A DNA stretch of 64,000 bases from an uncultured Mollicutes bacterium (GCA_900538885.1 UQAI01000001.1:25862-89861), one strand, 5' to 3'; shown: positions 12,454 to 64,000, counted from the first letter of the stretch. Translations and numbers: made by a program. Notes: a model not told the origin generated them from the sequence alone.

Positions 12454-12539
12454 GCAGCAATGGCGGAATGGTAGACGCGCTACTTTGAGGGGGTAGTATA
12501 CGAACGTATGTGTGAGTTCAAATCTCATTTGCTGCACCA
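12454..12539 (+). tRNA. tRNA-Leu (anticodon GAG), class II with long variable arm
   Basis: manual cloverleaf: acceptor GCAGCAA/TTGCTGC, 3-bp D stem, anticodon stem CTACT/GGTAG, loop TTGAGGG, variable-arm hairpin ATACG/CGTAT, T loop TTCAAAT, discriminator A + CCA. Confidence 0.85.
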
Positions 12540-12552
12540 TATTAGTAGAATA

Positions 12553-12583
12553 GGTTTGATACAATGTTATCAAGCCTTTTTTT
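12553..12583 (+). terminator. tRNA-Leu rho-independent terminator hairpin (GGTTTGATACAATGTTATCAAGCC + T7); also candidate attL core
   Basis: 9-bp imperfect palindrome plus T7; near-identical copy without T tail at 62709-62731. Confidence 0.7.
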
Positions 12584-12687
12584 GTAGTTAGAATAGGTGC
12601 GAACTCAGAAAATAAGGTTATTCTGGGTTCTTTTTTCATTTATATATAGATAGTTATTATAAGGGTATTTAGAAGCTCATAGTCATA

Positions 12688-12766
12688 CTTACACGATTAC
12701 ATCAAAGGGTGCTAAAAATTTTACACGATTTGAAGTAGGGGTGCTAACGGTTTACACGATTTGCTA
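12688..12766. repeat. about 2.5 tandem copies of a ~30-bp repeat (TTACACGATT-N8-GGGTGCTAAAAATT), repeat set A
   Basis: direct tandem repetition seen in sequence; same family at 62594-62680 and partial inverted copy at 22645-22670. Confidence 0.8.
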
Positions 12767-12850
12767 CAGAGCATACTTCGTATCAATAGACAAAATGAGA
12801 AAAAAGTGTTATAATTATTGCATAATTTATTCGTTTTCGGAGGGCATAAT

Positions 12851-13042
12851 ATGGATTACGCATCTGCTATAAAGAAATTAAGAAATAAAATGATTCTTAC
12901 ACAGACTGAATTTGCAAAAGAACTCGGTGTTTCTTTTGGAGCTGTTAATAGATGGGAGTCAGGGAAATTTAAACCTACCACTAAAACGAAAAGAAAAATA
13001 GCTGAACTATTTAAGAAATACAATATAGAAGTGGAGGATTAA
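12851..13042 (+). CDS. XRE-family helix-turn-helix transcriptional regulator (possible controller of the R-M operon)
   Basis: HTH_3 pattern TQTEFAKELGVSFGAVNRWESG; start at ATG 12851 behind GGAGGG RBS. Confidence 0.6.
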   Translation: MDYASAIKKLRNKMILTQTEFAKELGVSFGAVNRWESGKFKPTTKTKRKIAELFKKYNIEVED

Positions 13043-13045
13043 TTT

Positions 13046-16000
13046 ATGGCAAGTGGTTTTAATGAAGCAACTAGAGTTCAAATGCCTGCTCTAGTTCATT
13101 TACAAAGATTAGGCTATACATACGTCGGAAAAATAACCGAAGATCAAGCTGGTGTTGTTTATGATCCTGACACCAATATTTTAATCAAAGTCTTTAAAGA
13201 ACAATTTTGTAAGTTGAATCCTGGTCATGAAGGTGAAGCAGAACAAGTACTGAAAGATATTAGAATAGAATTGGATAATGATGATCTAGGTCGTTCATTC
13301 TTTAAAAGAATGCAAATGGTATCACCAGTAAAAATCATAGATTTTGATAATATTCAAAATAACGTATTCCACTATACTGCTGAATTTACATGCAAAAGAG
13401 ATCAAGATGAATTTAGACCTGATATTACATTATTTGTTAATGGATTACCTTTATGTTTTATAGAAGTTAAAAAGCCAAACAATAAAGGTGGATTGATCGC
13501 TGAAAGTAATAGAATGAACAATCAGAGATTTCCAAATAAGAAATTTAGAAGATTCATTAACATTACCCAACTTATGATTTTCTCGAATAATATGGAATAT
13601 GATACTCTTGGAGGAATTGTACCAGTTCAAGGTGCTTTTTATTGTACTGCTTCAAGAAATAAGTCTTTTTTCAGTTGCTTTAGAGAAGAGAATCCTGGCA
13701 ATGCCTCAGTTGCGCCATACAATAAAAATTATCCTTATGAAGAGATTGATGCTGTTGTAGAAAAGAAGATTTTATCTGATTTCAATTGCCAAGTAATTCA
13801 TACATCTCCAGAATATCAAACAAACCTAAATATCAATACACCTACAAATAGAATTTTAACTTCTATGTGCAGTAAAGAACGTCTTATGTTCTTGCTAAAA
13901 TATGGAATCGCATATGTTAAAAGTGAACGTGAAGTTGATGGTAAAATTGAGAGTACAGACCAAAAACATATTATGCGTTATCAACAGATGTTTGCTGCTT
14001 TGGCCATTAGAGAAAAATTAGATAAAGGATTGACAAGCGGTGTTGTTTGGCATACTCAAGGTAGTGGAAAAACCGCACTATCTTATCATCTTAACCATGT
14101 ATTAACTGATTACTTTGCAAAGCAAAATAAAGTAGCAAAATTTTATTTTATCGTTGATAGACTTGATTTATTAGAACAAGCTTCTCAGGAATTTGAAGCC
14201 AGAGGATTGGTTGTAAAAACTGCGAACAGTAGATCAGAATTGATGGCGCAATTTAGAACTAACCAGTCTTTAGAGGGTAATAGTGGTGCCAATGAAGTAA
14301 CTGTTGTTAATATCCAAAGGTTCGAAGAAGATAAAGAGAAAGTTACACTTCCTGATTATGCTACGAATTTACAAAGAATTTTTATAATTGACGAAGCTCA
14401 CAGAGGATATAAGCCAGAGGGTAGTTTTTTAGCTAATCTATTCGATGCTGATCCTAATTCTGTCAAAATCGCATTAACAGGTACACCTTTATTGAAGGAA
14501 GAACGTTCATCTTGGAAAGTATTCGGTACATATTACCATACATATTACTATGATAAATCGATTCAAGATGGATATACATTAAAGGTATTAAGAGAGCCTG
14601 TTGAAACATCATATAAAGAAAAATTATCTGAAATATATGAAAAATTAGAAACACTAGTTCAAAAGAAGGATGTCCAAAGAACACAAATAATTGAGCATGA
14701 TGTTTATGTTAAAGAACTTTTGAGATATATCATTTCAGATTTAAAACAGTTTAGACAAATCCAAGGTGACGATACTCTTGGAGGCATGATCATTTGTGAA
14801 ACAAGTGAGCAAGCAAGAAAATTATTCGCTTTCTTTGATAGCATTCAAAAAGAACTAAATGAGAATGCGTCGTTAAAGAGTTATTTTAAGGCTGGATTAA
14901 TATTGCATGACAGCGATGATAAAGAAACTAGAAAAAAGACTGTTACAAATTTCAAGAAGAACATGACAATCGATATTTTAATCGTATTTAATATGCTATT
15001 AACAGGCTTTGATGCTCCAAGACTTAAGAGATTATATTTTGGCAGAAAATTAAAAGATCACAATTTATTACAAGCTATTACGCGTGTGAATAGACCATAT
15101 AAAGAAAATAGATATGGTTATGTAGTTGATTTTGCTGATATTAAGAAAAATTTCGATGAGACTAACGAAGCTTATATGAAGGAATTAAACCGATTCAATG
15201 ATCCTGGCGAAGTTGGCGAAGGAAACGAGACTGACACATTCAAACAAGTTATAGAAGATAAAGACGCATTGATTCAACAGATGCAAGAGGTAAAGCAAAT
15301 TTTATTTGCTTATACAACGGATAATGCAGAGGAGTTTAGTTCTGAAATCTCTACGATTGAGGATAAAGAAGAACTTTTGAAATTGAAAAAAGCACTGGTA
15401 TCAGCTAGAGATTGTTGCAACATTGTAAGAACATTTGGTGATGATGAATTAAAAGCTAAATTTGCAGCAATGGAGATTACTAAACTTCCTTCATTAATAT
15501 CAGAAGTGCAACATCACATTGACAGCATAAATCAAAAAGAAGCATTAGCTGAAAGTGACTCAACAAAGCAATTAATTAATGAAGCAATGCAAGATATTAC
15601 TTTCAAGTTTCAAATGTTGACAGAAGAAGAAATGAAAATTATTTCAGGAGGCCAGGAGTTAGAAGATAAGTGGAAGAAGACAATTCGTTCATTTACTGAA
15701 AACGAGGACCAAGAAGATCCAGAATACATTACTTTACGTCAAGCATTTATTGAAAGATTCAAAGAACATGGTTTTGTTGTTGAAAGTGTAAGCCAATTTG
15801 AAAATTATACAAAGGAGCTAGATGAAATATTAAAGAAGCTAGCTGAATTGCAAAAGAAGAATAGTGCACTGTTGAAAAAGTACAATGGTGATGCTAAGTA
15901 TGCGCGTGTCCATAAGAGAATTAAAGAAGAAAACGAAAGCAGAAAAGCTAAAGGTGAGAAGCCACTAATTTCTGAATATGATGTCGATATTATGAATGCG

Positions 16001-17859: not shown

Positions 17860-19116
17860 ATGAAACTAAGAAATATATGTAAAATAGTTACAGACTCAAT
17901 TAATCCAAAAAAACAAAAAAATAAGCTTTTCGAGCTATATAGTTTGCCCGCTTTCGATGATTTCAAAAGGCCTGAAAATGTATATGGCTCAGATATCGAG
18001 AGCAATAAGTATTTGGTTCCAGAAAAAACAATATTGTTTAATAAATTAAATGTTAGATTCAAACGTATATGGAGGATCACCAACAATAACCAGGATAATA
18101 AAATATGCTCAACTGAGTTTCTACCAATAATTGTTGATGAAAAAATAGCCGATTTTGATTATGTTTATTTTTTATTGATGTCAGATCAAGTCACAGAATA
18201 CTTATGTGCACCAACAACTAATACTTCTGGAAGTCATAAGAGAATAGATCCAGATTTTCTACTTGATATGGAAATATCCTTGCCTGAATTAGACGAGCAA
18301 GTTCGCGTTGCAAGAAAACTAAAAACGCTAGATGATGAGGTTCAGTGTTGTTTTGATTTTGAAACTAAATCATTTAAATTTTTAAAAGATACATATGATT
18401 ACTGGTTTGTTTCTTATAACTTTCCTAACAATAATGGTGATGCATATAGTGAAAATGGTGGAACATTTGTAGAGGACAAAGAAACAGGTATTAATTATCC
18501 AACAAAATGGAGTTTTAATAAGATCGGACAGTATTTTAATGTTGTGAGAGGTGTAAGTTATAAGCCTGAAGATACTTCGGAAATAGAAACCGATATTCAT
18601 ATGCCGTTATTAAGATCAAATAATATTTACGACGAGAGATTAATACATGAAGATATAGTGTTTGTTGATAAAAAAAGGGTAAGTGAAGAACAAATATTAC
18701 ATGCAAATGATGTGTTTATTTGTATGTCTAATGGCAGTAAAAATTTAATTGGTAAAAATACAATTATTCCATATGATACAGAATATGCCTTTGGAGCTTT
18801 TTGTGCTAAAATTAAGAATATAGATTGCGATTATTTAGGCTTTATAAACTTATTCTTTAAGAGTAATTATTATAAAGCTTATATCGCACAAATATGTGCA
18901 AACACTAGTATAAATAATATCGGAAATGAAATGTTAACTGACTTAAAATATCCATTACCTCCGCTAAATATCGCTAAAAAGTTTAATGAAATATATTTAA
19001 AAGTAATGTCTGAAGTCGGGAATGCGCATAAATTTATGTTATCGACAAGAACATTATTAGAAAAACATATATTTATGGACATGAATGGAGTACTCATAAA
19101 TAGTTCAGAAGATTAA
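17860..19116 (+). CDS. hsdS: Type I restriction-modification specificity subunit (HsdS), two target-recognition domains
   Basis: 418 aa, duplicated TRD/conserved-helix architecture, immediately downstream of hsdM. Confidence 0.85.
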   Translation: MKLRNICKIVTDSINPKKQKNKLFELYSLPAFDDFKRPENVYGSDIESNKYLVPEKTILFNKLNVRFKRIWRITNNNQDNKICSTEFLPIIVDEKIADFDYVYFLLMSDQVTEYLCAPTTNTSGSHKRIDPDFLLDMEISLPELDEQVRVARKLKTLDDEVQCCFDFETKSFKFLKDTYDYWFVSYNFPNNNGDAYSENGGTFVEDKETGINYPTKWSFNKIGQYFNVVRGVSYKPEDTSEIETDIHMPLLRSNNIYDERLIHEDIVFVDKKRVSEEQILHANDVFICMSNGSKNLIGKNTIIPYDTEYAFGAFCAKIKNIDCDYLGFINLFFKSNYYKAYIAQICANTSINNIGNEMLTDLKYPLPPLNIAKKFNEIYLKVMSEVGNAHKFMLSTRTLLEKHIFMDMNGVLINSSED

Positions 19117-19156
19117 AAAAGCGACTTAGCTCAATTACGAGTTAAGTCGCTATTTT

Positions 19157-19357
19157 TTATTCTGGAATATATTCCATTATATCTTTGAAGTCACAACTAA
19201 GTGTCTTGCAAATTTTGCAAAGCACATCAGTAGTTACATTTTGACCTTTGGTCATTTTAGCAATTGAAGAGGAACTAACACCAGAGAGCTTAATAAGCTC
19301 TTTTTTGTTTAGGTTCTTATCGATTAATAATTTCCATAATTTGTTATAACTTATCAT
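19157..19357 (-). CDS. XRE/Cro-family HTH protein, last gene of the minus-strand three-component operon
   Basis: 66 aa HTH_3 (ELIKLSGVSSSSIAKMTKGQNVTTDVLCKICKTL); 1-bp gap to upstream ATPase gene. Confidence 0.55.
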   Translation of the reverse strand: MISYNKLWKLLIDKNLNKKELIKLSGVSSSSIAKMTKGQNVTTDVLCKICKTLSCDFKDIMEYIPE

Positions 19358-19358
19358 T

Positions 19359-21188
19359 TTATGCTTTCCTTACATTCTTTAAGAAGCCGTATCTACCTTT
19401 GTTTTCTTTTTGAGTGAACTTGTAGATAACAACATCATCGTTAATTTCTAATTCAGGCAATTCGCTGTATTTTGTGTTTTCAATTATAACGATCTGGTCT
19501 GCTGTTTCAAGATTTATTAAATAATCAAAGAATCCTTTTCTAACGTTATCTGAATCCTCATCTTTATCTTCAGGAACTGATAATCCCTTAAGTGGTGAAT
19601 CTAAGAACCAGAAGCAGCCTTTGTTGGCACTTTTTTCTTCTATGTACTTCCTTAAAAGAAGAATAAGCATGGAGTTGGTGAACGCTTTATATCCTTTACC
19701 ACGTCTGATCTTATTCTTATTGTTAACTATTAAATCTAACTTGGTTTCAGTAAAGTCAATAGTACTGATATTTGGGTATTTAACGTCAGTAAAGATTTGA
19801 ACACCGTTATCAATTACATATTGACCTATGATTGAGAATAGAATTTTCTTTGCTTCAAATTTTAGTTTAGGTACATCATCACCTTTTTGGTATTTCTTTA
19901 AGTCTTCTTCAAGATCAACGTCATTTGCTCCTAGTTCATCAATCGCAGACTTAAGTCGAATATACTCTTCATAACTTTGAATTTTTTTCGCAAGTTCTGT
20001 TCTCTTAGGAGTAAGGACTTCATTGATTTTTGTTTTGTTGATTTCTATTGTTTCTTTATAGACAGCAATTAGATCCCCATCATCATCCAATGTATCTTTT
20101 AGCATTGCTGATGTCTCATCTAGTTCATTAAGATTGTTAACAACATTTCTTAGTTCGACTTTTGCAGCTTCGATATAAGAAGTAGGGTTTTTTGGAGTCA
20201 TTTCATGGTCACAGTAAGGGCATTTAGATTTTGTTGTCTTGTGGCCTATAGAGACTTCATTATTAACGATAAATGTTAATCTATTAATTTCCTTTTGATA
20301 GTCACTTTTTAATTCTTCATATTTAGAGAATATTAATTCATTTTTTTGTTGTTTCTTTTGAAGAGTCATTAAGTTAAATGATGTAGTGGTATTTTCAGAT
20401 GTTAAGCGTTCAATCTCATCGTTTAACTTTATAAGACTCTCATTTAGTTCTTGAATAACAGTTTCTAATGAAGCTAGGTCAATGCCTGATTGCTTTAGTT
20501 TATCTTCTAAAACTTCCTTCTTTTTAGACATAGCTATTCTATGTTCTGAAATGTAGGCGATTACTGCATTTCTTTTTGCTTTTTTGATTTCGTCAGATTC
20601 ATCTTTTTTTAGATAGTCTTCTAGCGTATTTCCAGTAAGGAAATATATTAATGCAGCAAGATATGTGGTCTCTCCATTTTGTTGAAGAAGTACGGATTTA
20701 GGCTTGTCAGCTTTATCTTCATCAATTAGGAATGTTTTTTTAATCGTTCTCCAAGAAAATCTTTCTGGATCGCCATCAATATTAGAAGGAATCTTAAGGT
20801 CATCCTTTAATCCTAATATCTTAAGCATCAATTTATCTATCGTTTTATTATTTTTTTTACCTTCCTTAAGAACATATTCGCCGCTTTCAATTTCAGGATT
20901 GTCACAAGAAACTGTGGTTTTAGAAGTGCCTTGTACTCTGGTTAGTGTGATGTCACCGTATTGAGTTTCAATTATTAGGGTGATGGTATCAAACCCATCT
21001 GACTCATCGAATGGAGCATGATCGTCATCGTTTTTAGCACCAAGTACATAATCAACGCATTTATAAATACAGGATTTACCAGTATCAGAAGGTCCAGCGA
21101 TAATGGTTAGTTTATTTCCGAATTCAATTTCTGATGGTTCAGCATTTGGTCCGGTAGCAATAAGCTTTTTAAGTTTAATAAAACCCAT
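19359..21188 (-). CDS. Rad50/SMC-like ABC ATPase with central coiled coil and CxxC zinc-hook (LmuB / ABC-3C ATPase-like)
   Basis: Walker A GPSDTGKS at N-terminus, ~250-aa heptad-rich coiled coil with CPYC at its midpoint, C-terminal Walker B/D-loop FWFLDSPLKGLS. Confidence 0.6.
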   Translation of the reverse strand: MGFIKLKKLIATGPNAEPSEIEFGNKLTIIAGPSDTGKSCIYKCVDYVLGAKNDDDHAPFDESDGFDTITLIIETQYGDITLTRVQGTSKTTVSCDNPEIESGEYVLKEGKKNNKTIDKLMLKILGLKDDLKIPSNIDGDPERFSWRTIKKTFLIDEDKADKPKSVLLQQNGETTYLAALIYFLTGNTLEDYLKKDESDEIKKAKRNAVIAYISEHRIAMSKKKEVLEDKLKQSGIDLASLETVIQELNESLIKLNDEIERLTSENTTTSFNLMTLQKKQQKNELIFSKYEELKSDYQKEINRLTFIVNNEVSIGHKTTKSKCPYCDHEMTPKNPTSYIEAAKVELRNVVNNLNELDETSAMLKDTLDDDGDLIAVYKETIEINKTKINEVLTPKRTELAKKIQSYEEYIRLKSAIDELGANDVDLEEDLKKYQKGDDVPKLKFEAKKILFSIIGQYVIDNGVQIFTDVKYPNISTIDFTETKLDLIVNNKNKIRRGKGYKAFTNSMLILLLRKYIEEKSANKGCFWFLDSPLKGLSVPEDKDEDSDNVRKGFFDYLINLETADQIVIIENTKYSELPELEINDDVVIYKFTQKENKGRYGFLKNVRKA

Positions 21189-21190
21189 AA

Positions 21191-21628
21191 TTATTTCTTA
21201 ACTCCTTTCGTTCTATCTTTTAATTTTTGTATCGTAATAGGCTTCATTTCATCTATGATGTTAGAAGCGAATTTTTTATATTCTATAGAGTAATCATCGT
21301 TCATTTCTGACACATATGCCTTACCAGAATCGGTAATTGCGTATATAAAACCTCTATCTGGATTGTTCGTTACAGTAGCAAGACCTCTGAATAATAGTTC
21401 TTTTAGCGAGTTCTTTATAAGCTTGCGCTGTATTGTGAACTCGTTAAGTGGAAATGAGCAGACACCGTTTAAGTTTGATTCACCAAATCCATAATGTTCA
21501 GCATATATGGCAAAGAAGTCCAGACGCGCTATTTCATCTTCGTTTAGATAACTTTGTTTATCTAAAATCATAAGAAGGCGCATAGAAACTTCAAATTCAG
21601 TATTAAAAAGCTTTGTCATTATAGCCAC
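21191..21628 (-). CDS. small alpha-helical middle component (LmuC-like) of the three-gene ATPase system
   Basis: 145 aa, overlaps upstream gene by 10 nt and sits 2 nt from ATPase gene; size and position match the middle component of ABC three-component systems. Confidence 0.4.
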   Translation of the reverse strand: MAIMTKLFNTEFEVSMRLLMILDKQSYLNEDEIARLDFFAIYAEHYGFGESNLNGVCSFPLNEFTIQRKLIKNSLKELLFRGLATVTNNPDRGFIYAITDSGKAYVSEMNDDYSIEYKKFASNIIDEMKPITIQKLKDRTKGVKK

Positions 21629-22581
21629 CTTACCTTTCCGTCATTAACAAGCATGTGGACCATGCCCATTTTCTCTTCAGTTCCTACCATACCATTGCCA
21701 GCAGTAGTGAAATAACTTTTTGAAAAGGTAATAACCATCACTTTATCCATTGTCTTATTTAATTTTTCATAAGCATCAGGAACCATTGAATTTGTATAAA
21801 GTCTTATTGCTTTATAAATCTCGTCTTTCATAGATGAAAATTCCTGTTCACCATCGTAGAAGAAATTTCTAACTTGTCTTAGCACCGTTTCAGCACTATA
21901 AAAGGCTTCACGATGTATTTGTAATTCCATTTGATAAACTGGATGACCATCCAAATCACCTATCGATGATATTGATTCACCAGTCTTTTGCGAGTAAACA
22001 GATAATAGTGCAGTTACATATTCACTTTCCATATCGTCGGGATTATCTGGGACAGTAAGTGCTGGTGGTAGAGTGTATTCAGTTCCACCAATTCTAACTT
22101 TATTGCCTGGAAGGAACACAGCTTTTTTAATAGATGTTTTTCTATTCTTCTCTGAACGCTCTTGAAGTAAATCTGCAAAGACATTAGCTAATTCTTCAGG
22201 TAAGTCAATACCTGCAAGAGTGACTCCTTTCTTAGCAAAGTTATCAATAAGTAAGCCTATGGCTTCATCAGTCAATTCAGCTGCATCATATACATCTTGA
22301 AAGTACTCTGATGTTATTTTACTTTTTAAATATCTGGCATCCTTAATTGGCATGTCGGTGTCATTTGTTTCATTAAGCAATTTTTCACAGTAGTTTTCAG
22401 ACTTCATTGTTATGTCATTAAGAATTTTATTATCGATTAATGAAATATCTGTAAACCAAGTTATTACATCTTGGTAAATAAGACGTGCACTTAATCTATG
22501 TGTTTCAGGATCGACTTGTATTTGGCTGGCAAATGCATTCTTAATTAAGTTTATAAACTCGTATATTTTCATTATTATCAC
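21619..22581 (-). CDS. first gene of the three-gene operon; candidate sensor/effector (LmuA-like position) with no recognisable catalytic motif
   Basis: 320 aa, translationally coupled to the next gene; no nuclease/TIR/Sir2/protease signature visible by eye. Confidence 0.4.
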   Translation of the reverse strand: MIIMKIYEFINLIKNAFASQIQVDPETHRLSARLIYQDVITWFTDISLIDNKILNDITMKSENYCEKLLNETNDTDMPIKDARYLKSKITSEYFQDVYDAAELTDEAIGLLIDNFAKKGVTLAGIDLPEELANVFADLLQERSEKNRKTSIKKAVFLPGNKVRIGGTEYTLPPALTVPDNPDDMESEYVTALLSVYSQKTGESISSIGDLDGHPVYQMELQIHREAFYSAETVLRQVRNFFYDGEQEFSSMKDEIYKAIRLYTNSMVPDAYEKLNKTMDKVMVITFSKSYFTTAGNGMVGTEEKMGMVHMLVNDGKVRWL

Positions 22582-22644
22582 TTCCTTTAGAATCGGACTA
22601 AATGGGTTAGTCCGAGTACGACCGAGTCAAAAATATGACATTTT

Positions 22645-22670
22645 ATATAATGTAATCGTCAAATCGTGTA
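22645..22670. repeat. single inverted partial copy of the TTACACGATT repeat family (repeat set B), at the junction between defence island and prophage
   Basis: reverse complement CCTTACACGATTTGACGATTACAT matches the left end of repeat set A. Confidence 0.6.
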
Positions 22671-22974
22671 AGGCAATTAGCAGCGCAGCTAACGCCATTA
22701 TTCCTTTTGATAATTATACCAAATTCCAGGCATTTTTGCAAACCAAACAAGCTGCAAACTATGGCTGGTCTCAAATTAAAAGTTTGTGATGAGTATATTT
22801 CTTATCGTGTTAAGTAAGTTGACATAGCAGAAGATATCGCTGCGTCCCACATGTCACTTATGATACACACAATATCTGCAGAAAACTGTGGGAGTGGACT
22901 GCAACATCGAAACGGAAGTTCTAGTTTAGGACTGCCTATCTTTTGTTGCACCCAAAATTCGGTTAGCTCTGCAT

Positions 22975-23012
22975 GAAGGACCTCCGTTTCGCTAAAGAAA
23001 TTTAACATTCGG
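22975..23012 (+). terminator. terminator-like hairpin (cctccg...cggagg + T6) whose 3' arm is the GGAGG Shine-Dalgarno of the downstream gene; candidate attenuator
   Basis: inverted repeat and T run seen in sequence; ATG at 23023. Confidence 0.4.
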
Positions 23013-23022
23013 AGGTTTTTTA

Positions 23023-23682
23023 ATGAGATTACTTAAGACGCCTGCAAACAAGAGATTCAGGCAAGAAGAAGATGGTACTAAGACACCAATATTCACTATC
23101 TATTTTGATAACGGTGACAAGGTCATCTACGAGCCAGGTAAGGCTACCACAGTTTATGCCAAAGGTGGTAGCTGGGTTCAAATCGAAGAAGGCATAACAG
23201 AACTAACAATCAAGCAACTCTACAACGATGAAGACAATGAGATTAAACAAAACATAAGGGATTCACATTGTGAAACTGCTGGTATGGAAAAAGAAAGACA
23301 AGCTAAAAGAGCAGAATGGGCTAAGGCGCATCCTGATGCTGATGACAGCGAAAATCCATACAACGCTACTCATAAGCTAGTCAGCTTGGACTACCAACCA
23401 TCTGAAGATTTCGATTCAGATCATTCAGAGCTAGAGCTTGAAATAGCCAAGAAGCAACAAGACGAAGAGGATAGTGGCGATGATGAAAGAGATCAATACA
23501 TAGAAATGATACGCGCATACGTAGCCACATTGCCTAAGAGTCAACAAGAGCTATATCAACTTTATTACATAGAAGGCTTAAGCCAAACGCAAATCTGTGA
23601 AAAGTTGCATCTATCGAAAAGCACCGTATCAGAACGCTGCAAGACGCTAGAACAAAAACTTTTCAAAAAATTTAAGAAATAA
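23023..23682 (+). CDS. prophage regulator with C-terminal sigma-70 region 4 HTH (ECF-sigma-like early activator)
   Basis: C-terminal LPKSQQELYQLYYIEGLSQTQICEKLHLSKSTVSERCKTLEQKL matches sigma70_r4 pattern; acidic central region. Confidence 0.5.
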   Translation: MRLLKTPANKRFRQEEDGTKTPIFTIYFDNGDKVIYEPGKATTVYAKGGSWVQIEEGITELTIKQLYNDEDNEIKQNIRDSHCETAGMEKERQAKRAEWAKAHPDADDSENPYNATHKLVSLDYQPSEDFDSDHSELELEIAKKQQDEEDSGDDERDQYIEMIRAYVATLPKSQQELYQLYYIEGLSQTQICEKLHLSKSTVSERCKTLEQKLFKKFKK

Positions 23683-62793: not shown

Positions 62794-64000
62794 CTACGCT
62801 TTTTCATTTGGCAAGTCGACTTTGCCGATACCATTATAGAAGATATCGATTCTCATTTGTCTATGGCCATCAACTTTCTCAGCCTTATGAACGATAACCT
62901 TCTCTATGAATTCTCGTGCTATTTCATGAGTAAGCTCATCAATTCTTGTGTATTTTTGGACTAGTTCCATGAAATGGGAAGTAGATGCTGTTTGCTCATT
63001 AATGGCTTTGATTTTGCCTTCTAACTCAGCAATCTTTTCTTTTAGAGAAGTTTGCTCCTGCTCATAATTCTCATTCATCTTTTTGAATCTATCTTCAGAG
63101 ACAATACCTGATATTTTATCCTCATAAAGGTTTTGGATGATTGAATCAAGTTTCTCGATTCTGGCTTTTGATGCGTTTAGCTCCTTATTGAGAAGATTAA
63201 GTGATTTCGTGATATTCGCTGTCGACTCACTGGACACAAGCTTTATGAATTCATCCTCGTGTTCCTTTGCAAACTCAATATGACGCTTGATATCTTCAAG
63301 GACGATTTCATCGATAATCTTAATTCTTATTTGATGAGCTGAGCACAATCCTTGTCTCTTACGGTAAGTAGAACAACAATAATAATATGATTCTGGTTGA
63401 AGTGATTTAGTTCTGCAAACATATAGTTTCTTGCCACAGTCCGCACAATATATCATTCCAGATAGAACAGGCATTTCACCCATTGGTGTATTAGCCCTTT
63501 TTCTACCTTCCTTTAGCCTTTGCACTATGTCAAATGTCTCTTGATCGATAATAGCTTCATGAGTGTCCTTGATAATTACCCATTTTGAAGGTGGGTTAAT
63601 AAAGGACTTTTTGTTTTTGTAGGACTTTCTGCCAGTTTTGAAATTAACCGTATGGCCTAAGTATTCTTGCCTTGATAGGATATCTGAAACGACTGACCAA
63701 TCCCACCAATAAGGGTCTATGTTGTCCTTGCTATGGGTGTTAGGTATTCCTTTAGCATTCTTGTAAGAAGTAACATTAAGCACCTTTCTATCAGTTAAGA
63801 TTGTCGCAATCTTAGATGGCCCATTTCCTTGTACTGCTAAGCGGAATATCTCTTTAACAACCTCGGCAGCCTCTTCATCGATAAGCCAGTTGTATTTGTT
63901 GTTAGGGTCTTTCTTATAGCCGAACACTGGAATAGGAGCGGTAGGTTTTCCTGAATCACTCTTAGCTTTGATAACGGCTCTAATCTTCTTTGAGGTATCT
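62794..64000 (-). CDS. large serine recombinase, N-terminal part beyond window edge
   Basis: recombinase domain plus zinc-ribbon (CADCGKK...C) and C-terminal coiled coil; reading frame remains open to position 64000. Confidence 0.8.
   Translation of the reverse strand, partial: DTSKKIRAVIKAKSDSGKPTAPIPVFGYKKDPNNKYNWLIDEEAAEVVKEIFRLAVQGNGPSKIATILTDRKVLNVTSYKNAKGIPNTHSKDNIDPYWWDWSVVSDILSRQEYLGHTVNFKTGRKSYKNKKSFINPPSKWVIIKDTHEAIIDQETFDIVQRLKEGRKRANTPMGEMPVLSGMIYCADCGKKLYVCRTKSLQPESYYYCCSTYRKRQGLCSAHQIRIKIIDEIVLEDIKRHIEFAKEHEDEFIKLVSSESTANITKSLNLLNKELNASKARIEKLDSIIQNLYEDKISGIVSEDRFKKMNENYEQEQTSLKEKIAELEGKIKAINEQTASTSHFMELVQKYTRIDELTHEIAREFIEKVIVHKAEKVDGHRQMRIDIFYNGIGKVDLPNEKA

Follow-up and report, generated by a model that had tools for sequence, protein, structure and literature searches.

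The DNA analysed here, hereafter the window, is a stretch of 64,000 nucleotides (nt) from an uncultured Bacilli/Mollicutes bacterium of the human gut (GCA_900538885.1 UQAI01000001.1:25862-89861). On its minus strand, between positions 19157 and 22581, it carries an operon of the Lamassu defence family, with the gene order lmuA-lmuC-lmuB-XRE, that is, effector, middle component, ATPase and regulator. Our proposal, to which we give a probability of roughly 0.6, is that the operon encodes a 'short', zinc-hook type II Lamassu of the CTD6/MC2 subtype, carried by a prophage and expressed from its own promoter, in which LmuA would be released on activation, its N-terminal domain would act non-enzymatically and the XRE protein would repress its own operon. 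The family itself is already recognised by PADLOC and Pfam. The interest of the locus lies in the N-terminal domain of LmuA, in a conserved frame formed by the promoter and the XRE gene, and in the repeats of the lmuA leader. Coordinates refer to the whole 64,000-nt stretch unless another record is named, and L- and P-numbers denote the loci and proteins compared with it.

Family membership and structure of the operon

The first-pass annotation of this DNA had proposed a Lamassu or ABC three-component (ABC-3C) system on the basis of its gene order and of ATPase motifs, and had suggested searches with profile hidden Markov models. These searches matched the three core proteins to curated LmuA, LmuC and LmuB models, in the predicted order. 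LmuA was matched over essentially its full length by the PADLOC LmuA model (PDLC03857, 6.1e-50, amino acids (aa) 4-319) and, in its last 135 aa, by Pfam CTD6 (1.3e-29, aa 185-319 of the 320-aa open reading frame, ORF). LmuC was matched by Pfam MC2 (1.7e-30) and, again essentially full length, by PADLOC LmuC (PDLC03875, 9.6e-38), and LmuB by PADLOC LmuB (PDLC03867, 1.5e-151, aa 5-607). As far as family assignment goes, the locus is therefore an ordinary member of Lamassu (ABC-3C), and the CTD6/MC2 subtype is already catalogued rather than new, since PADLOC has full-length models for it. Identities between the window proteins and those of related loci range over 31-65% for LmuA, 32-53% for LmuC and 31-58% for LmuB. 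The LmuB architecture, a short-type Walker B, the position of LmuC and LmuA's C-terminal domain all place the operon in type II 'short' Lamassu. The recognised effector classes (Cap4, Mrr, PDDEXK, HNH, Sir2, protease, lipase, FMO and SMEK) were not found at the N-terminus of LmuA. The earlier description of the first protein as unassigned thus holds for its N-terminal 147 aa, which have no recognisable effector motif, but not for its C-terminal half, which is CTD6.

The four co-directional ORFs listed on the minus strand (22581-21619, 21628-21191, 21188-19359 and 19357-19157) agree with the tight coupling first described, although two starts had to be moved on the evidence of homologue alignments and junction sequences. 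The lmuA ORF of 320 aa exists, but the gene most likely begins at the ATG at 22572 and encodes 317 aa (21619..22572; N-terminal domain, linker and CTD6): MK(I/V) lies at or near the start in 29/29 aligned relatives, five of which have an N-terminal extension, and the exact 317-aa protein is present in public collections. Likewise, the 145-aa ORF for the middle component exists, but the ATG at 21619 is the most likely start of lmuC, which then encodes 142 aa (21191..21619), a form on record in public collections, while the 145-aa form was absent from the collections searched. The lmuA stop and the lmuC start overlap in the sequence TAATG. Gaps of 2 nt and 1 nt separate lmuC from lmuB (19359..21188; 609 aa, a Rad50/SMC-like ABC ATPase) and lmuB from the XRE gene (19157..19357; 66 aa, a helix-turn-helix protein of the XRE/Cro-C1 type), which is the last of the operon.

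LmuB has the motifs previously ascribed to it: a Walker A, GPSDTGKS (aa 32-39, nt 21072-21095), a single CPYC (aa 323-326 of 609, nt 20211-20222) and a Walker B/D-loop, FWFLDSPLKGLS (aa 526-537, nt 19578-19613), in which FWFLDS (aa 526-531) is the Walker B. The signature position is occupied by GKG (nt 19692-19700). Between the two ATPase halves (about aa 195-440), the matches were to coiled-coil families only, an assignment that reflects family matches and not a dedicated predictor. A central CxxC is present in 98/98 distinct full-length LmuB relatives from CTD6-linked loci and is, therefore, not a chance feature; in the orthologue alignment, C323, P324 and C326 are invariant. We read CPYC as a putative zinc-hook motif at the predicted apex of the coiled coil, a feature that only some Lamassu clades have. 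The residue following the Walker B aspartate is serine in 76 relatives, threonine in 18 and methionine in one, that is, serine or threonine in 94/95. Short Lamassu LmuB proteins have been described as about 600 aa long with a Walker B of the form hhhhD followed by Q, S, T or E (10.1101/2025.04.02.646746), and the window protein, with its 609 aa, GPSDTGKS, hhhhD-S and one central CxxC, fits this description.

A profile built from four LmuB orthologues and compared with solved structures retrieved DUF3732 chains first (9hqu, E 4.5e-5), followed by SMC and Rad50 heads. We take these DUF3732 entries to be Lamassu LmuB, presumably that of Vibrio cholerae. At the position of the H-loop histidine of SMC and Rad50, the window protein and its three closest orthologues have an asparagine, within an invariant DQI..(I/V)(E/D)N (LmuB aa 564-571, nt 19476-19499), an equivalence placed by eye on the alignment and not by structural superposition.

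The weak head-domain matches to SMC and Rad50, together with the reported derivation of this lineage from SbcCD, are what might be said for a housekeeping repair ATPase of the Rad50/SbcC/RecN type accompanied by two accessory proteins. This explanation is effectively refuted. The NCBIfam scores are far below their cut-offs (RecN 12.9 against 408 bits, Rad50 14.6 against 700 and SMC 21.4 against 567), there is no Mre11/SbcD partner, and the cassette is carried on a prophage and absent from the same site in a strain of the same species (L168). The first annotation had also looked to the neighbours in related genomes, and the related loci do have defence genes beside the cassette. A Wadjet assignment was rejected as well: PADLOC JetC matched only the coiled-coil region (E 0.58), and the ORFs of the window include no Jet partners.

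The N-terminal domain of LmuA

LmuA consists of an acidic, all-alpha N-terminal domain (N-domain; aa 1-147, nt 22132-22572), a short beta-hairpin linker (aa 148-181, nt 22030-22131) and CTD6, the domain of ABC-3C coupling (aa 182-317, nt 21622-22029), all on the minus strand. The family is small, with 47 clusters at 90% identity, nearly all of 317 aa. Most of the conservation falls in CTD6, where R, E, R, D, N, E, H, N and W are invariant, and the only invariant residues of the N-terminal 147 aa are F, K, P, A and L. Modelled alone, the N-domain folds into eight helices (pLDDT 90.3, pTM 0.85), and its pI is 4.4-5.0 in 16/18 sequences. Its structure retrieved only three uncharacterised Siphoviridae proteins from the BFVD viral library (TM 0.56-0.70).

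A profile search with the N-domain against 1.84 billion representatives returned only 58 proteins. Most have the N-domain followed by CTD6, a few, of about 140 aa, stand alone, and in several the domain precedes a cysteine-rich, HNH-like module and CTD11 (P0189, P0211, P0213, P0214 and P0219). This distribution marks the N-domain as a real module of ABC-3C effector proteins, one without identifiable chemistry. Given its lack of conserved catalytic-type residues and its acidic surface, a non-enzymatic or accessory role is suggested; most likely, it binds or sequesters a protein or recruits a partner, rather than acting as a nuclease, NADase or protease.

Comparison with known systems sets the N-domain apart. 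Lamassu-Mrr shares with the window CTD6, the order lmuA-lmuC-lmuB and an LmuB of about 600 aa with a central CxxC, and actinobacterial relatives have CTD6 joined to Mrr_cat nucleases, whereas the window LmuA has, in place of Mrr_cat, the 147-aa acidic helical domain without catalytic motifs. The window system is also XRE-linked and prophage-borne, while the actinobacterial CTD6/Mrr relatives lack the XRE gene. The DdmABC system of V. cholerae likewise has three components and an SMC-like LmuB, but its LmuB has no zinc hook and its LmuA carries Cap4, in contrast to the CPYC and the nuclease-free LmuA of the window. The Lamassu-Lipase of Escherichia coli also has a short zinc-hook LmuB and a non-nuclease effector; it differs in the identifiable catalytic histidine of that effector, of which none was seen in the window LmuA, and an XRE partner is not reported for it. 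Lamassu systems with Mrr or other nuclease effectors act by abortive infection that depends on the SMC ATPase (10.1101/2022.05.11.491447).

In solved Lamassu complexes, an inactive LmuA monomer sits on LmuB2-LmuC, DNA ends are sensed, and LmuA is released and tetramerises (10.1101/2025.06.23.660979, 10.1101/2025.04.02.646746). By homology, we infer for the window system a dimer of LmuB joined at the CPYC hook which, with LmuC, would hold one LmuA inactive through CTD6. The LmuB heads would sense ends or replication intermediates of phage or plasmid DNA in an ATP-dependent manner, upon which LmuA would be released and self-associate; the N-domain would then most likely act non-enzymatically, through a protein target or partner.

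A different view of the same domain is that the operon is an effector-less or decayed Lamassu. It would have lost an Mrr or HNH nuclease and retained an accessory helical domain joined to CTD6, and protection would come from DNA binding by LmuB and LmuC or from a nuclease acting in trans. The missing conservation of catalytic-type residues and the location of the N-domain ahead of HNH-like modules in CTD11 proteins would fit such a history, as would the existence of a clade of short Lamassu that has seemingly lost its effector domain while keeping LmuB and LmuC intact (10.1101/2025.04.02.646746). In one joint MAFFT alignment, moreover, the invariant LPPxL of the CTD6-protein linker falls on LCPKCH of the HNH-like proteins, which would agree with a degenerate HNH remnant; the match is weak, at 13-18% identity, and constitutes weak evidence that the linker may be a decayed HNH finger. 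However, the N-domain is intact and confidently folded in relatives down to 30% identity, which argues for a selected function, and no conserved gene for a trans-acting effector lies beside the cassette, whose flanking genes vary. We regard loss of the effector as unlikely, though it is the most serious competitor to the proposed release of a functional N-domain.

The promoter, the XRE gene and the leader repeats

The promoter-like element P1 (TTGCAA-17-TGgTATAAT, 22713..22741, minus strand) has an extended -10 and was found in a consensus scan (10/12 plus TG), its assignment being a consensus match only. A TGnTATAAT box with a TTGTAA-like -35 is located about 120-150 nt upstream of lmuA in 19/21 related loci; of the other two, one has the box at -72 and the second has none. 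The lmuA leader that follows is about 140 nt long (22573..22712) and contains, on the minus strand, a conserved box, CCTTACACGATTTGAC (22658-22673), a -10-like element, TATATAAAAT (22640-22649), and a Shine-Dalgarno (SD) sequence, AAAGGAAG (22581-22588). P1 and the first 70 nt or so of the leader are 93% identical between loci with different ABC-3C cargo. An Rfam scan of 19000-23100, leader included, gave no meaningful match.

At the other end of the operon, the XRE protein has a single Cro/C1-type domain (Pfam HTH_26, 2.7e-18, aa 6-66); an assignment to VanU was rejected at 77 bits, under the 150-bit cut-off. In nearly all related loci that extend past lmuB (L081 is the exception), a HTH_26 gene encoding 66-79 aa comes next, within about 15 nt; a distance of 1-15 nt was recorded for some 40 loci. 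Its product is 76-94% identical to the window protein in most of them and 65-70% identical in L005, L072 and L089. The disparity with the rest of the operon is clearest in L003, where identities to the window LmuA, LmuC, LmuB and XRE are 32, 33, 34 and 94%. A search with the XRE protein (19157-19357) returned more than 1000 clusters, the best 120 of which (P0048-P0167) are all 79-97% identical. Seven matches were traced to their contigs, and each was found in an ABC-3C cassette, either CTD6-MC2-LmuB or CTD11-MC7-DUF2326, or beside a truncated lmuB remnant. The actinobacterial CTD6 relatives have no XRE gene.

The CTD11-MC7-DUF2326 cassettes occupy the same prophage slot and also end in the XRE gene. 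Their effectors have a homologous N-terminal helical domain, but they differ from the window system in the ATPase (DUF2326), the middle component (MC7) and the coupling domain (CTD11), and in the HNH-like cysteine-rich module between the N-domain and that coupling domain. In a BLASTN comparison of a CTD11-type locus (L155) with a CTD6-type locus (L066), two blocks of 93% identity, one of 305 nt covering the promoter and early leader (L155 2613-2917, L066 1-305, window 22660-22800) and the other covering the XRE gene and terminator (L155 6004-6256, L066 3605-3854, window 19115-19357), enclose about 3.1 kb without similarity. Promoter and XRE gene thus make up a conserved frame into which different ABC-3C cargo is set, and the hyper-conservation of XRE is explained by this arrangement. 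XRE is a conserved partner of the cassette and not an incidental neighbour; we found no published description of such a partner for Lamassu, and the three papers that mention both do so outside title and abstract.

The simplest reading of the frame is that XRE autoregulates the promoter, and XRE most likely represses the promoter region of its own operon. It would keep a potentially toxic system at a low and constant level, whatever the cargo between promoter and XRE gene. Toxicity or reduced growth has been reported upon Lamassu expression, and E. coli Lamassu-Lipase is toxic when over-expressed; tight control by XRE would fit with this.

The frame is closed by a hairpin terminator (19115..19151, both strands) that XRE and hsdS, which are convergent, have in common. 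It has 13 pairs and, on the plus strand, a T-run behind them; the minus strand has a T-run too. Over 46 nt, it is 96% identical to its counterpart in L149. Some relatives have a further gene behind XRE, in the same direction, which encodes a DUF4357 or a NucS_C/DUF5655 protein (L001 3642-4517 and L148-L152; L003 11432-12349 and L156 6245-7156). At least in L149, it lies between XRE and the conserved terminator, whereas in the window the terminator directly follows XRE.

Within the leader, the array 22593..22625 (minus strand) consists of TCGGTC (22620-22625), TCGGAC (22610-22615) and an inverted GTCCGA (22593-22598). TCGGAC stands 10 nt downstream of TCGGTC, with 4 nt between them, and pairs with GTCCGA in a stem-loop of 9 bp, from whose end the SD is 4 nt away. 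Variants of the array are found in related loci (TCGGAG twice with CTCCG, or AGGACC with GGTCCT), and the leaders of a sister clade contain four direct copies of CGGAC or CGGAG with an exact 10-nt spacing. Besides the window, the loci in which such 10-nt-spaced motifs were noted just upstream of the lmuA SD are L003, L004, L006, L010, L013, L024, L104 and L111. A lag-10 peak of repeated 5-mers was detected in 5/19 and 10/12 leaders, and the signal was flat in control regions and actinobacterial loci. In the 317-aa family, the hairpin formed by the last direct copy and the inverted copy has seven consensus pairs, and compensatory changes are seen in four; one of the pairs is C-G in 10 sequences but G-C in 7, and the closing pair is most often U-G. 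The array belongs to the cargo and not to the conserved frame, and it may act in the DNA as an array of operators, in the RNA as a hairpin close to the SD, or as the site of a repeat-binding factor.

Several other candidate elements of the region were discarded. An internal promoter in the 3' end of lmuB (TTGAAA-16-TATAAT, 19483-19510, minus strand, 11/12, about 125 nt before XRE) overlies the codons of the conserved DQI(V/I)IIEN and is not kept in relatives, and an upstream ORF of 23 aa in the leader is not conserved. The 68-aa ORF at 22802-23008 is probably not a gene, its reading frame not being kept in relatives; for this reason, the overlapping DNA block GCGATATCTTCTGC...CTTAACAC upstream of P1 (22800-22840), which is conserved across loci (L064, L066 and L155), probably serves the divergent region as a non-coding regulatory element.

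A number of observations weigh against the proposal as a whole. For XRE, no operator was identified in the promoter and leader comparisons, and upstream of P1 the search for a common operator yielded only variable TCnCAA...TTGnGA inverted repeats of inconsistent spacing. Binding of XRE to the leader repeats was rejected as a candidate, in that identical recognition helices pair with CGGAC or with CGGAG, which leaves the link unsupported though not disproved; repeat arrays are also present in XRE-less relatives, with other motifs such as TTGGGATAAAC, which occurs three times. For the effector, fold and family searches matched the N-domain to no characterised protein and no known family, leaving an effector role unsupported, and its place before the HNH-like module in CTD11 proteins suggests that it may be an accessory and not the killing part. 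The C-terminal domain of LmuA was modelled at low confidence. Neither LmuA nor LmuC has a sequence relative among PDB chains and, because of this, the assembly proposed above is extrapolated from different CTD and MC families; for the CTD6/MC2 subtype, the argument is one of homology, and computational throughout.

Prophage context and significance

The window reads from chromosomal genes (RNase R and a thioesterase) through a tRNA-Leu (12454-12539), a small helix-turn-helix gene with a type I restriction-modification (R-M) system and the Lamassu-XRE operon into a prophage, which has genes for a sigma-like protein, DUF2800, AAA_24, a helicase, a primase and TerL, and then to a serine recombinase (62794-63927). 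The R-M system adjoining the operon comprises HSDR_N/SWI2_SNF2, N6_Mtase and Methylase_S proteins. The type I R-M system and tRNA named in the first-pass annotation were thus found, and its defence island can be refined to the cargo arm of a prophage: the Lamassu cassette is accessory cargo at the arm of an element of about 40 kb. In most long related loci, the same junction recurs, with lmuA divergent from a DUF2800-AAA_24-helicase-primase module. The other flank varies among relatives and includes type I, II or III R-M, DUF4357, NucS-like or SNF2 genes; R-M systems are neighbours of the cassette in relatives as they are in the window.

Other strains show what else can occupy the site after the same thioesterase gene. 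It is empty in L168, identical to the window in L162, taken by other defence islands in L163-L165 and L167, and occupied in L166 and L169 by a prophage of the same family without R-M, Lamassu or XRE. The 4HBT thioesterase/tRNA-Leu site (12454-13046; L162-L169) is a strain-variable integration hotspot, and its alternative contents include a type I R-M system with a shufflon-like integrase and GmrSD, an LlaJI-type system and a serine-recombinase element with BREX. Directly upstream of hsdR, and ending 4 nt before its start, a plus-strand ORF (12851-13042) encodes a 63-aa HTH_3-type protein, possibly a controller of this type I R-M system, and L162 has the same gene.

This setting bears on a further explanation, in which the cassette mainly serves the prophage. 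XRE would be a phage regulator and Lamassu would ride on the lysogeny transcript, providing superinfection exclusion or a signal of damage or replication, in the manner of lambda cI-rexAB. The divergent position beside the phage replication module, seen here as in most long related loci, is compatible with this idea, and so are the matches of XRE to phage repressor families in PHROGs and the constancy of XRE and promoter while the cargo changes. Nevertheless, the absence of XRE from the same-family prophages at the same site in L166 and L169 indicates that it is not a core phage regulator, and all sampled XRE contexts are ABC-3C cassettes or their remnants. Superinfection exclusion is, besides, itself an anti-phage defence, so this explanation overlaps with the defence role that we favour. 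As a separate account, we consider it improbable, and more so than the loss of an effector.

A related block is also known from a phage record: that of Streptococcus uberis prophage Javan630 (MK448997.1 1-3282; L161 5549-8830) ends with lmuA, lmuC and ATPase genes, annotated as 'hypothetical' proteins of 333 aa and 150 aa and an 'ATPase involved in DNA repair', at which the record stops. More broadly, the arrangement resembles the hotspots of P2/P4-type prophages, where a temperate phage has, at a fixed position, varying defence cargo between conserved flanks, and where Lamassu members occur according to Rousset et al. 2022, as cited in 10.1101/2022.05.11.491447. It differs from them in that the flanks of the window frame are a promoter and a small regulator gene within the transcription unit of the cargo, which suggests a built-in regulatory frame.

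Taken jointly, and only as a tentative picture, the N-domain may be a new, non-enzymatic Lamassu output, working as an oligomerising binder or an adaptor, the promoter/XRE frame may be a self-regulating 'plug-in slot' for ABC-3C systems in temperate phages of gut Bacilli, and the CGGA(C/G) repeats may be a cassette-specific cis-element. We hold this combination to be less probable than its absence, if slightly more probable than a Lamassu stripped of its effector.

The highly conserved 66-aa XRE protein offers a simple search handle for further cargo. If the N-domain is the effector, Lamassu could do without any nuclease, NADase, lipase or protease in aborting or blocking infection, and this would widen the known outputs of immunity based on SMC proteins. 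The promoter/XRE frame around swappable ABC-3C cargo, in turn, suggests a way in which phages may safely carry toxic defence systems.

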